Position numbers and translations under genes: made by a program
Assembly: GCA_001825155.1 (NCBI GenBank)
Contig: MHVH01000006.1
Location: 4,939-68,938, forward strand
Direction of reading: 5' to 3'
Length of the DNA: 64,000 nucleotides
From: Candidatus Zambryskibacteria bacterium RIFCSPHIGHO2_01_FULL_46_25
Lineage (GTDB): Bacteria > Patescibacteriota > Minisyncoccia > Phycocordibacterales > Zambryskibacteraceae
Shown here: in pieces, positions 35,462-58,549 of the stretch
Position numbering within the stretch: position 1 is the first letter of the stretch
Layout: every line of letters begins with the position of its first letter
The notes under the pieces: model-generated
Told to the model about the DNA's origin: nothing
Databases searched by the model: none
The model's input: the letters and a program-made list of their open reading frames with translations, nothing else

Positions 35462-35506
35462 TAATTGTATCAGATAAATACGTGGTTTATTGTGTATAAT
35501 GAGGAT

Positions 35507-35878
35507 ATGAAAACCGCCTTGTTATCCGTTCTGCTCTCCTTTGCCATGTTATTCCCTGTTTCTTACGCAAAGGCACAAATAATGCCATTTGGCGGACTTT
35601 CTACTTTCTTCGTTCCATGCACTTGTTCGGGCAACCTAGCTATATGGTTTGCCCCATTTTTCCTCGGCGGACCAGCAATTGCGACTGGGTTCATCACTTA
35701 TTCGCCATATGCTACTTTCCAATACTCCGATTACATGGCTGGGATGCCTGATGTGTGGTATCTTGGGTCTTATATACCTGGAGTACAAGCTTGTTATATA
35801 TATGTGGGAGTGACTTGCACGTTATTTCCCACAATTGGGCTCATGACACAAGTTGGAACGGGTTTACCGGGGATATAA
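35507..35878 (+). CDS. small hydrophobic secreted protein (possible pilin-like)
   Basis: Start set at MKTALLSVLLSFAM; signal peptide then Gly/aromatic-rich hydrophobic body. Confidence 0.3.
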   Translation: MKTALLSVLLSFAMLFPVSYAKAQIMPFGGLSTFFVPCTCSGNLAIWFAPFFLGGPAIATGFITYSPYATFQYSDYMAGMPDVWYLGSYIPGVQACYIYVGVTCTLFPTIGLMTQVGTGLPGI

Positions 35879-36721
35879 TCAGCTGACGAGAAGTCTCGCC
35901 AGGGCTCCCCATTTTTCGGCTGGAAGGTCTTCAGCTCTCAAGTTTGGGTCCAAGTTGAGTTTTCCGAAAGCTTCATTCACCTTTTTCTTGTCAAAGTGCT
36001 TGGAAAGATTCGATGAGAGCTTCTTTCTCTTGGATTGGAAGCCTGCTTTGAGCAATTTGAAGAAAAATTCTTCCGAAATTGTGGACGCTCGGCTTCCACG
36101 ATTGAAGAAATTCCTAGAAATGTCCTCGACTGTGATGATTGCCGAATCCACCTTCGGCGCAGGAGCAAATGAGCCCGCCTTGACTGTTTCCACATACCGC
36201 GGTCTCCCGTAAACCTTGACCGAAATCGACAAAATACTCTCTTTCGTGAACGCCTGGCGTCCACGCCCACCCACTATTCTTTCTGCCACCTCTTTTTGAA
36301 CCAGAAGCACCATGCGCTTGGGCTGACACTCAGCGGACAAAAACTTTTTCAGAATCGCGCCGGTTATGTTGTAAGGAATGTTGGCGACAACTTTGTAATT
36401 TTCTTGCCTGCCGGCAGGCAGGGCAATTTTCAATTTAAAATTTTCAATTTCGAAATTCAGGATGTCATCATGAATCAGAATTAATTTCCCAGAATTTATC
36501 TCGTTTTGAAATTTGATTTTTAAATTTTCATATAAATTATCATCTTTCTCTACCGCGACAACTTTCGCACCGGTTTCCAAAAGTTTTTCAGTTAGTGCTC
36601 CCGTGCCGGGACCAATTTCTAAGACTGTGTCGCCGGAATTCAATCTTCCTGCCTCGACAATCGCGGCAAGAGCGCGTTCGGATTTTAAAAAATGCTGACC
36701 CAGAGATTTTTTCGCTCTCAT
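35879..36721 (-). CDS. ksgA: 16S rRNA (adenine1518/1519-N6)-dimethyltransferase KsgA/RsmA
   Basis: LGQHFL; SAM motif LEIGPGTGALT; NIPYNITG; carries in-frame repeat insertions at 36425-36458 and 36077-36100. Confidence 0.85.
   Translation of the reverse strand: MRAKKSLGQHFLKSERALAAIVEAGRLNSGDTVLEIGPGTGALTEKLLETGAKVVAVEKDDNLYENLKIKFQNEINSGKLILIHDDILNFEIENFKLKIALPAGRQENYKVVANIPYNITGAILKKFLSAECQPKRMVLLVQKEVAERIVGGRGRQAFTKESILSISVKVYGRPRYVETVKAGSFAPAPKVDSAIITVEDISRNFFNRGSRASTISEEFFFKLLKAGFQSKRKKLSSNLSKHFDKKKVNEAFGKLNLDPNLRAEDLPAEKWGALARLLVS
36077..36100. repeat. REP-like palindrome copy 1 (inside ksgA, translated RGSRAST)
   Basis: aattgtggacgctcggcttccacg; the 27-mer aaattgtggacgctcggcttccacga is identical to copy 2. 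Confidence 0.85.
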
Positions 36722-36735
36722 TTGATGTTTACCAA

Positions 36736-37392
36736 TTAAATCCCCGTTTCTTCCAACTCTTCCAATAAAATTTTTCTTTCAATAATACCCCGCAAACTCT
36801 CTTCAGCAAATTTTTTATACTCCGCTCTATTTTTAAACTGCTCCAAAATCCTTTCTTTAGCGCAAATCGGTTCGGGGAAATTTTTATTCATATACTCTTC
36901 CCAGCTTGTTTGACAAATTGTGGACGCTCGGCTTCCACGACTATGAGCTAGGTGATTTAAATTTATATATGCGCTCAAATGAAGCAAATATTCATTTGTG
37001 TCTATAAGTTTTGCCTTAAATTTCCCCTGGAATAAAGAACCGGATCTTTTATATTTCGCGTTGAAATACTTACTAAATCCGGTGCCTAAGCGATGCATAA
37101 ACTTTTCAATCCCCTTTTCTGATACTTGTTCAAGCATAAAATGAAAGTGATTCGGATTGATGCCGTAAACAGTGAACTTTACCAAGGGTTTTCCCTCAGT
37201 TGTGGAAGCTCGGCTTCCACGTTTGCGTTCCCTATTCTCGTAGATGCTTCCTATGGGCTTTATCGTGTTGAACTCTCTCATACTTTTTATGAATCGTTCT
37301 AAATCCTTATGTTCCAAAAGAATTTTTCTTCCGTCAACTCCACGGTTGTAAATGTGGTAATACTCTTTTTCTACAAATGGGATATCACGCAT
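36736..37392 (-). CDS. IS200/Y1 HUH transposase-like protein, probable REP-associated tyrosine transposase (RAYT)
   Basis: YHIYNRG N-terminus, HUH motif NHFHFML, C-terminal LSAYINLNHL tyrosine region; contains two in-frame copies of the palindrome. Confidence 0.55.
   Translation of the reverse strand: MRDIPFVEKEYYHIYNRGVDGRKILLEHKDLERFIKSMREFNTIKPIGSIYENRERKRGSRASTTEGKPLVKFTVYGINPNHFHFMLEQVSEKGIEKFMHRLGTGFSKYFNAKYKRSGSLFQGKFKAKLIDTNEYLLHLSAYINLNHLAHSRGSRASTICQTSWEEYMNKNFPEPICAKERILEQFKNRAEYKKFAEESLRGIIERKILLEELEETGI
36917..36940. repeat. REP-like palindrome copy 2 (inside the transposase ORF, translated SRGSRASTI)
   Basis: aattgtggacgctcggcttccacg. Confidence 0.85.
37198..37222. repeat. REP-like palindrome copy 3 (inside the transposase ORF, translated KRGSRASTT)
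   Basis: cagttgtggaagctcggcttccacgt; perfect 8-bp stem gtggaagc/gcttccac with 3-nt loop. Confidence 0.85.
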
Positions 37393-37409
37393 TCATAATA
37401 TCTTAACAC

Positions 37410-37434
37410 AATTGTGGAAGCTCGGCTTCCACAG
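37410..37434. repeat. REP-like palindrome copy 4 (intergenic, about 20 nt upstream of the transposase start)
   Basis: caattgtggaagctcggcttccaca. Confidence 0.85.
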
Positions 37435-37452
37435 GACCTGCACACACAGAAA

Positions 37453-39417
37453 TCAGAAATCTATCTCAAGTAAGGGTTTTCCTTCCCTTCTTCGCGAAGT
37501 TTCTTCGCTAACTTCTTCTTCCATCAGATTTTCCGGAATGTCGAAAATAAATTCCGACGGAGTATTGGCTCGTGTTCGGCCGAAAACGGTGCGCGTTTGC
37601 GCGTAAGTAAGAAAAACTTTTTTTCTCGCTCGCGTGAGCGCCACATAGAAAAGGCGGCGCTCCTCCTCCGCTTCTTCGGGTGTTATATACGTTTCCTTCA
37701 TCTTCTGATGCGGAAATAATCCGTCCTCTAGTCCGGCGACGAATACAATGTCGAATTCGAGCCCTTTTGCGGCGTGAACCGTCATAAGTCTGACCGCCCT
37801 TCTCTCTTCCTTCAGTTCGTCCTGGTCGCTCTGTAGGGCCGTTTCTGAGAGAAATGCCTGTACGCCTTCCTCACTAGGAAGCTCATTGTATCTGGTGGCA
37901 AAATTAACCAACTCGTACGCATTTTCGAGCCTTGCCGCACCGTCTTCTCCTCCCTCTTTCCACTCTGTTTCTAACCCAGACTCTTTGATAATAAAGAGAA
38001 TAGTTTCAGAAATTTTTTGCTCTTTGGCAATCATGGCAATTTTTTCCAACAGTTTACGGAAAGAACTGATTTTCGACTTCATGCCGATGGGCAATGCGGT
38101 TTCCTGGCCGGAGAACATTCTGACAATAGTCGTTTTACCTATGCCGCGCGCCGGCGTGTTGATGACGCGTTTGAGATCGGTAAGACACTCCGGGTTAAGG
38201 GCGGCGCGCAGGTAAGAAATAATGTCTTTCACTTCTTTGCGCTCGAAGAATCTGGTGCCGAGAATTTGGTACGGCACGCCCTCGTTCATAAAGGCTTCTT
38301 CGAGCGCTCGCGACTGAAAGTTGGCGCGGTAAAGCACGGCAATCTCGCCGGGGTCGGCGCTGGCGGCTATGAGATTCTTGGATTTTGAAGCGATGAAGCT
38401 TGCCTCGCTTGTTTCGTCGAGGCAAGAGACTGTACTAATTTTCTCTCCCGCCTGGTTTTCGGTAAAGAGATTTTTTTTCCGCCTGATTTTATTTTTCTCA
38501 ATGACGGCATTGGCCGCTTCGAGGATTGTCTTGGTCGAGCGGTAGTTCTCCTCAAGCGTGAATGTTTGCGCCCCCGGGTAGTCGTCTTCGAAGGCGAGAA
38601 TATTTTTGATATCCGCGCCGCGCCAGGAATAAATATTCTGGTCTATGTCGCCGACAACGCAGATATTTTGCTCGGGGCCGGTAAGCATGCGCGAAATTTC
38701 ATACTGCACTCTGTTCGTATCCTGGTATTCGTCGATGTGAATGTATTTCCAAACATTCTGGTAGTAACCACGCACGAACGAATCGTTTCTTAAAAGATTG
38801 CCGGTCTTGAGCAGCAAGTCATCGAAGTCGAGCGCGTTCTCCCGCTCAAGAGATTTTTCATATACCGGCCAGACTTGCCCCACTACGTCCATGAAGTAGC
38901 CTCCTTCGCCCACGCTTGCCCATTCCTCCACGCCTATGCCCTTGCCCTTGAGTTTTGAAATAATGCTTAAAATCGCGCCCGGTTCATGGGTTTTCGGGTC
39001 AAGTCCGATGGAAACAATCGCTTCTTTTACTGTTTTCTTGCTGTCATCTCGGTCGAAGATGGAGAAATGTTTCTTGAGCCCCGCCTTGCCGGCATGTTCA
39101 CGCAATATGTGGACGCCGAGAGAGTGAAAGGTGCTGACAAAAGGTCTTTCGCTCATCGAGATTGGGCGATTGATATCGGGGTCGGACGCAAGCCTTGCGG
39201 AAATGCGGTCGCGCATCTCCTTCGCCGCCTTATTGGTGAAAGTAATGGCAAGAATATTGGATGGCGCCACTCCGGAATGGACGAGATGGCGGATGCGCTC
39301 GGTTATAGTCTTGGTTTTGCCCGCTCCGGCTCCCGCCAGTATGAGAACCGGTCCTTCGGTTGCTTCGACGGCCCTTTTTTGCTCCGAGTTGAGAGAGTGC
39401 ATAAGGTACTGGCACAC
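37453..39417 (-). CDS. UvrD/PcrA-family ATP-dependent DNA helicase
   Basis: Walker A AGAGAGKTKTI; helicase motifs (DEYQDTN, VGDIDQNIY, VHAAKGLEFD). Confidence 0.85.
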   Translation of the reverse strand: MCQYLMHSLNSEQKRAVEATEGPVLILAGAGAGKTKTITERIRHLVHSGVAPSNILAITFTNKAAKEMRDRISARLASDPDINRPISMSERPFVSTFHSLGVHILREHAGKAGLKKHFSIFDRDDSKKTVKEAIVSIGLDPKTHEPGAILSIISKLKGKGIGVEEWASVGEGGYFMDVVGQVWPVYEKSLERENALDFDDLLLKTGNLLRNDSFVRGYYQNVWKYIHIDEYQDTNRVQYEISRMLTGPEQNICVVGDIDQNIYSWRGADIKNILAFEDDYPGAQTFTLEENYRSTKTILEAANAVIEKNKIRRKKNLFTENQAGEKISTVSCLDETSEASFIASKSKNLIAASADPGEIAVLYRANFQSRALEEAFMNEGVPYQILGTRFFERKEVKDIISYLRAALNPECLTDLKRVINTPARGIGKTTIVRMFSGQETALPIGMKSKISSFRKLLEKIAMIAKEQKISETILFIIKESGLETEWKEGGEDGAARLENAYELVNFATRYNELPSEEGVQAFLSETALQSDQDELKEERRAVRLMTVHAAKGLEFDIVFVAGLEDGLFPHQKMKETYITPEEAEEERRLFYVALTRARKKVFLTYAQTRTVFGRTRANTPSEFIFDIPENLMEEEVSEETSRRREGKPLLEIDF

Positions 39418-58150: not shown

Positions 58151-58549
58151 CTAAATCACTATATTCTCTATCATCTCCACCCTCGCTCTGCGGGTGGTCA
58201 TGTCCATTTTTACCGTAATAAGGTCCAATTGCCAGTCACATTCCAGTTTCCTGTGTAACAAATAGGTCTGGATTACCCTACCCAAACGCTTAAGCTTCCA
58301 AGGATGCATATTCTCCTCCGGCCTTACCAAGGCAAGGCCTTGGTAAGTTACACAAGAAACACTTTTTACCTCTACAAAGTGAATAATATTAGCTTTTTTA
58401 GTCACTATATCTATTTCGCCCCACTTCCTTAGATAATTGCGCTCAACTATCTCATACCCGTGTTTCTTGAGAAACTCGCAGGCGATATTCTCGCCGATAT
58501 CGCCCAGTTTGCGTTTAGGAGTTCTAGTATCGGGTTTCATGATTAACAT
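58151..58549 (-). CDS. YraN-family (UPF0102) endonuclease-like protein
   Basis: GEIDIV...FVEVK core of the YraN restriction-endonuclease-like fold. Confidence 0.65.
   Translation of the reverse strand: MLIMKPDTRTPKRKLGDIGENIACEFLKKHGYEIVERNYLRKWGEIDIVTKKANIIHFVEVKSVSCVTYQGLALVRPEENMHPWKLKRLGRVIQTYLLHRKLECDWQLDLITVKMDMTTRRARVEMIENIVI

Follow-up and report, generated by a model that had tools for sequence, protein, structure and literature searches.

A candidate REPtron of Patescibacteria: one short hairpin at four fixed places in and around a RAYT-like Y1/HUH gene

A stretch of 64,000 nucleotides (nt) of the genome of Candidatus Zambryskibacteria bacterium RIFCSPHIGHO2_01_FULL_46_25 (contig MHVH01000006.1, positions 4,939 to 68,938 of the forward strand; hereafter, the window) contains several copies of one short palindrome, located in and next to an open reading frame (ORF) that a first-pass annotation described as a gene for a REP-associated tyrosine transposase (RAYT; REP, repetitive extragenic palindrome), and in the adjacent ksgA gene. 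The question raised by this locus is why the same hairpin should be repeated ahead of a putative nuclease gene, twice inside its reading frame and again inside its neighbour. The answer that we favour and regard as reasonably probable is that the locus is a REPtron (a RAYT gene flanked by REPs) of the candidate phyla radiation (CPR, or Patescibacteria), which combines a single-copy, vertically inherited, RAYT-like Y1/HUH nuclease or transferase with a cognate, short, low-copy "double-foot" hairpin that the enzyme probably copies. The cognate hairpin has the form GTGG-NNNN-loop-NNNN-CCAC in the window and ACTTGG...CCAAGT in most relatives. One unit occupies four fixed places: upstream of the gene, at two in-frame sites that correspond to poorly ordered loops of the protein, and downstream of the gene. 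In the window, the downstream role is taken by two in-frame sites of the adjacent ksgA. The observation is real and more general than the first-pass annotation recognised, and the interpretation offered there was partly right. The features concerned are, in descending order of coordinates:

37414..37432: copy 4, perfect, within the 60 nt that separate the pcrA/uvrD stop codon from the RAYT start codon; its end is 21 nt before the ATG at 37392
36736..37392, minus strand: RAYT-like Y1/HUH gene, 218 amino acids (aa), with HUH at H82-F-H84 and the catalytic-type Tyr Y142 in YINLN
37202..37220: copy 3, at RAYT site 1, located between helix 1 and the pre-HUH strand; the hairpin is perfect and encodes residues 57-63 (RGSRAST) in-frame
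36920..36938: copy 2, at RAYT site 2, directly after the Tyr helix; the hairpin has a single C.T mismatch and encodes residues 152-158 (RGSRAST) in-frame
35879..36721, minus strand: ksgA/rsmA, 280 aa, directly downstream of the RAYT gene, with two hairpin-encoded inserts (TIGR00755, 217 bits with a cutoff of 171; PF00398, E 1.6e-50)
36246..36264: copy 5, at ksgA hot spot A behind QKEVAERIV, where it encodes GGRGRQAFT in-frame; the hairpin has decayed and belongs to an older type (GTGGACGC-CAG-GCGTTCAC on the coding strand)
36081..36099: copy 1, at ksgA hot spot B behind ISRNFF; the hairpin has a single C.T mismatch, and its in-frame translation is NRGSRASTI

A pattern search located exact matches of GTGGAMGCTCGGCTTCCAC at 36081-36099, 36920-36938, 37202-37220 and 37414-37432, with zero matches expected and none in 100 shuffled sequences. 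The four copies announced by the first-pass annotation within 1.4 kb (36081-37432) are therefore real, and the list has to be extended by a fifth, decayed copy, GTGAACGCCTGGCGTCCAC at 36246-36264, which was recovered in a search that ignored the loop and is in-frame in ksgA with one mismatch. Beyond these five copies at the locus, the same loop-ignoring search detected none in the remaining 62 kb of the window. All four exact copies share one orientation, with the loop TCG on the plus strand. In copies 3 and 4, all 8 bp of the stem are paired around a 3-nt loop (DNA folding energies of -8.1 and -9.1 kcal/mol, z -4.5 and -5.6), and copies 1 and 2 have a single C.T mismatch at pair 6 (-6.5 and -4.9 kcal/mol), such that the hairpin proposed by the first-pass annotation folds at -4.9 to -9.1 kcal/mol. 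Copies 3 and 4 are of the perfect AAGC type, copies 1 and 2 are hybrids with one ACGC arm, and copy 5 is of the ACGC/CAG type. The coding copies 1-3 all read R-G-S-R-A-S-T in the same codon phase of the minus strand. The identical stretch shared by copies 1 and 2 (36076-36101 and 36915-36940) is 26 nt long, not 27 as had been counted, and implies recent copying, as had been supposed.

Judged by its structural model, the product of ORF 36736..37392 is a Y1/HUH protein with the TnpA/RAYT fold, in agreement with the motif-based assignment in the first-pass annotation. The Pfam family PF01797 (Y1_Tnp) matches residues 71-144 with 27.8 bits (cutoff 23); the match is incomplete owing to the interruption of the N-terminal region by site 1. 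In an AlphaFold (AF2) model built from 34 homologues (predicted local distance difference test, pLDDT, 80.7), HUH lies on strand 83-89 and the Tyr on helix 133-144. A Foldseek comparison with the PDB gave the E. coli RAYT of the RAYT-REP complex as the best match (4ER8; E 6.4e-5, template modelling (TM) scores 0.45/0.57), followed by the TnpA proteins of IS608 and ISDra2; a sequence-profile search of the PDB with the family alignment returned nothing relevant. Altogether 4854 homologues of the ORF were collected, essentially all from Patescibacteria where the source is named, with the family motifs NHFHF, LFQGKF and YINLN. H82, H84 and Y142, as well as the Asn of the YINLN motif, are invariant in 81/81 homologues, every ORF being intact at 208-235 aa. 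The spacing between HuH and Y is normal (58 residues), and the protein of about 218 aa carries a C-terminal helical extension. The blocks encoded by the hairpins coincide with the two loops that the model predicts with the lowest confidence (residues 49-65, pLDDT <50; residues ~151-160, mean pLDDT ~60).

Two side observations concern individual family members. The homologue P0002, encoded on a contig of 1032 nt, is a variant of 182 aa with 83% identity to the window protein. Missing from it are 36 residues, the Tyr helix and site 2 among them, possibly through a deletion or an error of assembly. The homologues P0012, P0034 and P0041 have N- or C-terminal extensions with WTPGVH or WTLGVH, which is the flanking hairpin translated in another frame; hairpins therefore mislead gene callers.

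The layout seen in the window recurs throughout the family. DNA was compared at 80 fetched metagenomic loci encoding homologues, and a zone test, in which fixed codon-aligned zones were taken irrespective of palindromes and stems of at least 9 bp were counted, covered 81 homologous loci. The zone upstream of the gene contained such a stem in 69/80 loci and the downstream zone in 52/76; for sites 1 and 2, the counts were 44/81 and 46/81. Each of six control zones of the same genes yielded 0-3 of 81. The usual places are 18-37 nt upstream of the start codon, around nt 156-203 and nt 432-504 of the gene, and 12-65 nt past the stop codon, and the offsets within the gene are nearly all multiples of 3, which amounts to a common codon phase. 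At the protein level, the alignment of 34 homologues contains a short block at the same two positions in every sequence. These blocks vary among proteins and agree within one protein (RGRQAST/RGRQAST, RGHRVST/RGHSVST, LGSKASK/LGSKASK), and their residue pairs (S..A, H..V, R..A, R..T, L..K) are the products of complementary palindrome codons. Because the homologues have hairpins, of different sequence, at these two codon-aligned positions in an identical phase, the in-gene copies of the window are not recent insertions, and the first-pass claim that the palindrome had been inserted twice into this particular gene is not supported: the two positions are old, and the hairpin unit alone is replaced.

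The unit itself is a perfect or one-mismatch palindrome of 19-27 nt. In the subclade of the window, the foot of the stem is GTGG or GTAG as the first bases on both arms, and at most other loci it is CTTGG or CTTAG; the outer stem ACTTGG/CCAAGT is conserved among loci, and the inner 4 bp and the loop are variable. Loci devoid of perfect hairpins mostly possess imperfect ones or hairpins with loops of 5-9 nt. Covariation on alignment A2 is very strong, yet the sequences of A2 were selected as palindromes, and this result is descriptive only, the zone test being the one relied upon.

Within a locus, the copies change together. At 65 loci, two or more copies are perfect. In 61 of these, the perfect copies have no loop other than X or its reverse complement, and both orientations are present at 40 loci. 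The 65 loci represent 48 stem-plus-loop types, and a type is shared by only 25 of the 2080 pairs of loci. The stem and loop are the same within a locus and different between loci, and therefore the hairpins change in concert, being copied and replaced as a set. Because the loops of the opposite orientations (TCG/CGA, GAA/TTC, CTT/AAG) differ at all three bases, it is the whole unit that is inverted. A clear case of replacement is provided by the syntenic orthologous loci L043 and L062, in which the genes are 78% identical and the flanks 75% and 68% identical and all copies have been switched (TGGAAGC/tca vs TGGGTGC/gga). The stem and loop type of copy 5 in the window (ACGC/CAG) is that of the RAYT-gene hairpin in the relative L039. 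The hybrid 19-mer, with its mismatch and TCG loop, occurs unchanged in hot spot A of ksgA in L038 (in the opposite orientation), in parB of L005, in tsaD of L026 and in gyrB of L032; it is therefore a stable copied unit and not merely a transition state. Loops that would act as stop codons (TGA, TAA) are found 0 times in the coding sequences (CDS) and 10 times in the flanks, which speaks for selection on the reading frame.

The copies in ksgA are true in-frame inserts at two hot spots. At hot spot B (copy 1), most of 120 CPR orthologues are empty and read ISKxFF-x-x-F-S-E, and about a third have inserts; the insert of copy 1 itself comprises about six residues, is in-frame and is absent from most orthologues, as expected for the tolerated insertion that the first-pass annotation had proposed. 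The inserts at this site derive from different palindromes translated in different phases (RGSxAST, VQSSALD, LEVELPS, VDTECL) and therefore from independent events. The ksgA gene of L037 contains the same type of 19-mer at the copy 1 site, with the loop flipped. At hot spot A (copy 5), 43/121 orthologues have the short form (ARDGKES), and the others carry palindrome-encoded inserts of 5-10 aa. Comparison of the DNA of filled and empty sites confirmed palindromes at both hot spots, and both fall in segments that are variable in length relative to the solved KsgA structures. Among the KsgA orthologues P0122-P0240, palindrome-like peptides of other CPR lineages occupy hot spot A (KPFDSAQGK, KPHSAKASRGK, SPRHGVSGK, PLGGSASKW); several unrelated hairpin families therefore use the same KsgA loop.

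Dispersal is not limited to ksgA. The exact 19-mer is present in parB, tsaD, gyrB and ksgA of metagenome-assembled genomes (MAGs) of related CPR, in two frames and both orientations, the orthologue-based insert check pertaining to ksgA only; elsewhere it is read as VDARLPQ or VEAERPQ, and it also lies outside genes. Counts of the exact 19-mer in whole assemblies were 4 for MAG WC_11 and 3 for MFD03282. The loci, 702 kb in total, contain 47 perfect 9-bp/3-nt palindromes located more than about 120 nt away from the gene, with an estimated chance expectation of about 3, and 27 of the 47 are within long ORFs (ORF length serving as a proxy for gene calls). The density of dispersed perfect copies in the flanks of the 81 loci is about 1 per 15 kb.

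Several further hairpins were noticed on the side. Two extra copies of the locus hairpin are located 7.4 kb downstream in L107 (14670-14690 and 14816-14836); one of these falls in a short ORF with the translation HKLGGLTAKLARSSWNE, which resembles site 2 and may stem from a second, fragmentary RAYT-like gene. About 29 exact 19-mer matches in high-GC taxa (among L001-L036), including six in Solirubrobacterales MAGs, were set aside as probably due to chance or unrelated; some of these may lie in a conserved gene and not result from chance. The window as a whole contains 26 perfect palindromes with 8-bp stems and 3-5-nt loops, compared with a mean of 3.3 in shuffled sequences, a general excess of hairpins that exceeds the family studied here. 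The perfect palindrome TACCAAGGC-AAG-GCCTTGGTA at 58325-58345 of the window is within a 152-aa ORF, and similar units are found twice in L057 (TACGAAGGC...GCCTTCGTA) and in L088 (TACCAAGGG...CCCTTGGTA); these palindromes may constitute a second hairpin family. A search of Rfam produced no meaningful match in the region 35500-38000; a weak match in the helicase gene (37499-37558, minus strand) to the archaeal C/D-box sRNA sR38, with 19 bits vs a gathering score of 50 and E 0.18, is almost certainly due to chance.

Could the copies have been made alike by the host, with no contribution from the encoded enzyme? Under this alternative, which we consider unlikely but deserving of attention, the hairpins are homogenised by intramolecular template switching at quasi-palindromes, by which one arm comes to match the other, and by short-patch conversion among neighbouring copies with the conserved outer stem in common, and the Y1 protein binds the hairpins without moving them. 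The conservation of the outer stem, with variation confined to the inner 4 bp and the loop, is compatible with such a process, as are the low copy number, the location of most copies within about 1 kb and the failure to find a target motif. However, the same unit is present kilobases away, in unrelated genes and in both orientations; the three-base loop differences (TCG/CGA, GAA/TTC, CTT/AAG) require inversion of the whole unit; and the shared homology of 6-8 bp is very short for conversion. Moreover, the catalytic residues are strictly retained in 81/81 homologues.

The upstream copy is associated with promoter-like elements. A TAnnnT box follows the upstream hairpin, with a distance of 5 nt in 35/66 loci and of 2-16 nt in 55/66. 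The box often ends 6-7 nt ahead of the start codon, a placement that suggests leaderless mRNAs. The 5' arm of the hairpin provides TTGGNN at a 17-nt spacing to this box, and in L084 the best promoter-like match within 1 kb, TTGGAA-17-TATAAT with TG (10/12 positions), overlaps the hairpin. The first-pass annotation had placed copy 4 about 20 nt upstream of the ORF, in line with the 21 nt measured. Two further features of the window belong here:

37400..37408, minus strand: possible extended -10 element, TGT TAAGAT, deduced from the sequence and ending 7 nt before the ATG
37453..39417, minus strand: gene for a pcrA/uvrD-type helicase, the conserved upstream neighbour (PF00580 and PF13361, synteny)

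By analogy with the homologous loci, TGT TAAGAT is possibly a weak extended -10 element, compatible with a leaderless mRNA. Copy 4 (37413-37433), 20 nt downstream of the pcrA/uvrD stop codon, has a terminator-like score too and could act as a terminator for this upstream gene as well.

These properties are what would be expected if the hairpins were immobile cis-regulatory elements (acting as an operator at the promoter, as roadblocks or mRNA structures within the gene, and as a stabiliser at the 3' end) that resemble each other within a genome only to fit one binding protein, and the fixation of the four positions across the family, the overlap of the upstream copy with promoter-like elements and the terminator-like scores of copy 4 and similar copies all speak for this possibility. 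It is nevertheless improbable in our view, to about the same degree as homogenisation by the host, given that the same units are in-frame in ksgA, gyrB, tsaD and parB, that both orientations relative to transcription are found, and that independent double substitutions at four sites are unlikely to have yielded 48 types. Furthermore, the one-mismatch hairpins in CDS (sense strand: G.T 6, A.C 4, other 5; too few cases to be decisive) include no excess of G.U that would point to selection for RNA structure.

The gene neighbourhood bears on a third possibility, an active insertion sequence (IS) of the IS200/IS605 type, in which the outer hairpins are the left and right ends and the internal ones are incidental. 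The hairpins border the gene as in IS200, and the fold is shared with the TnpA proteins of IS608 and ISDra2. However, the window has the RAYT-like gene only once, 9 loci share the order uvrD-RAYT-ksgA, close relatives have homologous flanks whose divergence is similar to that of the gene itself, near-identical copies in other contexts were not seen, and the window has no downstream hairpin ahead of ksgA. In the window and the related loci, the gene thus appears to be single-copy, vertically inherited and not IS-like, and the active IS, which we deem very improbable, is rejected on account of the single copy in the window and the equally diverged homologous flanks. The idea that RGSRAST is a protein-level motif or a chance repeat with an incidental DNA palindrome, to which the single frame and single peptide of the three coding copies in the window might lend some appeal, has a practically negligible probability and is rejected, being contradicted by the zero matches expected by chance, by the unrelated peptides that homologues encode at these positions (LGSKASK, RGHRVST, GGLTA and others), with residues co-varying as complementary codons, and by the same DNA elsewhere in other frames (VDARLPQ, VEAERPQ) and outside genes.

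Two side observations concern the neighbourhood. Many of the database matches of KsgA and RAYT are on contigs of identical size. In L112 (1-2625), uvrD adjoins ksgA directly and a RAYT-like gene is located 7 kb away; the insertion of the gene between uvrD and ksgA is therefore lineage-specific.

If the locus is a CPR REPtron, its mode of action may be sketched by analogy with TnpAREP and the IS200/IS605 enzymes. The protein would bind the hairpin folded in single-stranded DNA, cut at the hairpin foot via a phosphotyrosine intermediate and rejoin the ends, with the result that units would be moved or exchanged between sites. The upstream copy would hold the -35-like box and the spacer of the promoter of the gene, and binding of the protein or extrusion of the hairpin at the promoter would repress the gene, a form of autoregulation. 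The in-frame copies would persist inasmuch as the two loops seem to accept almost any 7-9 residues and selection on the frame would shield the copies from deletion. More tentatively, and with considerable doubt on our part, the two in-frame positions may be more than simply tolerated, and the nuclease gene may act as a protected store of its own substrate, in which the in-frame and promoter master copies would link the specificity of the enzyme to the identity of the hairpin, so that the two are inherited, regulated and switched together and replacement of the whole set is the normal course of evolution.

Several points weigh against the interpretation of the locus as a REPtron whose enzyme copies the hairpin. 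Classical cognate REPs are present in tens to hundreds of copies per genome, and the copy number is low here: 5 in 64 kb, all at the locus, and 3-4 exact 19-mers per related genome. The NCBIfam RAYT model REP_Tyr_transpos (NF047646) gives 24.9 bits, far under its cutoff of 80, and the Y motif is YINLN[HD], whereas the class 2 signature Y---NP (PMC6006769) has P at the last position. Copying by the encoded nuclease is a proposal drawn by homology only. The hairpin type departs from the RAYT tree: WC_11, in which the protein is ~58% identical (an estimate from a partial sequence), has the window 19-mer, and L038 and L039 (77% and 72% identical) are without it at the RAYT gene. No conserved target or cleavage motif was found in the comparison of filled and empty ksgA sites, in which the boundaries are blurred by differing neighbour codons. 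The loci without perfect hairpins keep their catalytic residues intact, a loss having been sought and found in none of the 81 homologues, although most of these loci have imperfect or longer-loop hairpins. Finally, a consensus scan detected no canonical promoter on the minus strand at copy 4 in the window, and for this reason the argument on the promoter rests on the homologous loci.

The spread of REPs and their matching to RAYT are unresolved for the classical REPs (PMC8266576). If the gene does serve as a protected store of its substrate, it would be a compact natural model of both REP dissemination and RAYT matching. In any case, the family is a simple, readable case for REP-RAYT matching, with a unit of 19-27 nt, four fixed, alignable positions and thousands of natural variants (4854 homologues) on whose tree the switches of the whole hairpin set can be mapped. 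On the proposed interpretation, REP/RAYT biology would extend to CPR/Patescibacteria, and a RAYT group with subclass-2.1-like motifs, reported to be REP-free, could have REPs. The hairpins would also explain short variable inserts in conserved CPR proteins (KsgA, GyrB, TsaD, ParB), which have consequences for alignments, phylogenies and gene calls; some ORFs in databases, for instance, run through the flanking hairpins.

REPs flanking RAYT genes (REPtrons), the GTAG/GTGG foot and the co-evolution of REPs with the enzyme are established (PMC3333891, PMC3479197, PMC8266576). The CPR locus resembles the REPtrons of the E. coli type (subclass 2.2, 4ER8) in the HUH-Y1 fold, the cognate hairpins that border the gene, the single copy and vertical inheritance, the genome-specific hairpin that changes with the lineage of the gene, and the GTGG/GTAG-like foot (PMC6006769). 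In contrast to these REPtrons, the CPR hairpins are 19-27 nt long, have the foot on both sides, are low-copy and in many cases are located within genes, and the CPR protein, of ~218 aa, has a C-terminal helical extension and YINLN[HD] and scores under the NCBIfam RAYT cutoff. The CPR locus is like the IS200/IS605 elements in its Y1 HUH fold and in having subterminal hairpins to either side of the gene; unlike in those elements, the gene gives no sign of multiple copies or shifting context, and hairpins are also present in the gene and in other genes.

Intragenic in-frame REPs have been described in several phyla (Di Nocera et al., 2013; PMC3733652). Like these and the Rickettsia palindromic elements, the CPR hairpins are in-frame in housekeeping genes, often those of DNA/RNA metabolism, sit in loops that tolerate them, and are found in some orthologues and not in others. 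In contrast to both, the CPR elements are far shorter (6-9 residues), are tied to a resident RAYT-like gene with the same unit, and appear repeatedly, in different phases, at two hot spots of a single gene. By motif only, the CPR protein (NHFHF, FQ, YINLN, about 220 aa, C-terminal extension) resembles subclass 2.1 (RAYT group 1, TIRYT), for which NH[YF]H, FQ for WQ/WE, a Y[IV]HLNP-like motif, a size of ~238 aa and a C-terminal extension are listed; subclass 2.1, however, is reported without REP-like sequences near the gene, whereas the CPR family has hairpins at almost every locus.

The closest precedent concerns the in-frame copies. The first-pass annotation took a RAYT with its cognate hairpin in its own reading frame to be undescribed, but tnpAREP genes of subclass 2.4 carry in-frame REPs between HuH and Y, along with "double-foot" REPs (Quentin et al., 2018; PMC6006769), and intragenic REPs, too, have been reported (PMC3733652). 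Its more limited claim, that the combination is new to CPR-type genomes, fares better: no such system in CPR, and no combination of a fixed four-site layout (before HuH and after Y), a promoter-embedded copy and family-wide set-wise replacement, was found in the searchable literature. Compared by description only, subclass 2.4 (RAYT group 4; PMC6006769) and the CPR family have in common cognate REPs in the reading frame of the enzyme itself, placed in peripheral loops and leaving the frame unbroken, and a GT[AG]G...C[TC]AC double foot. They differ in that the inserts of subclass 2.4, described from Cyanobacteria and Bacteroidetes and not from CPR, lie between HuH and Y, are variable in length and render the HuH-Y spacing irregular, whereas in the CPR family this spacing is normal and the sites lie before HuH and after Y at fixed codons. 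In-frame REPs in RAYT genes are thus already described, and the CPR family varies that theme.

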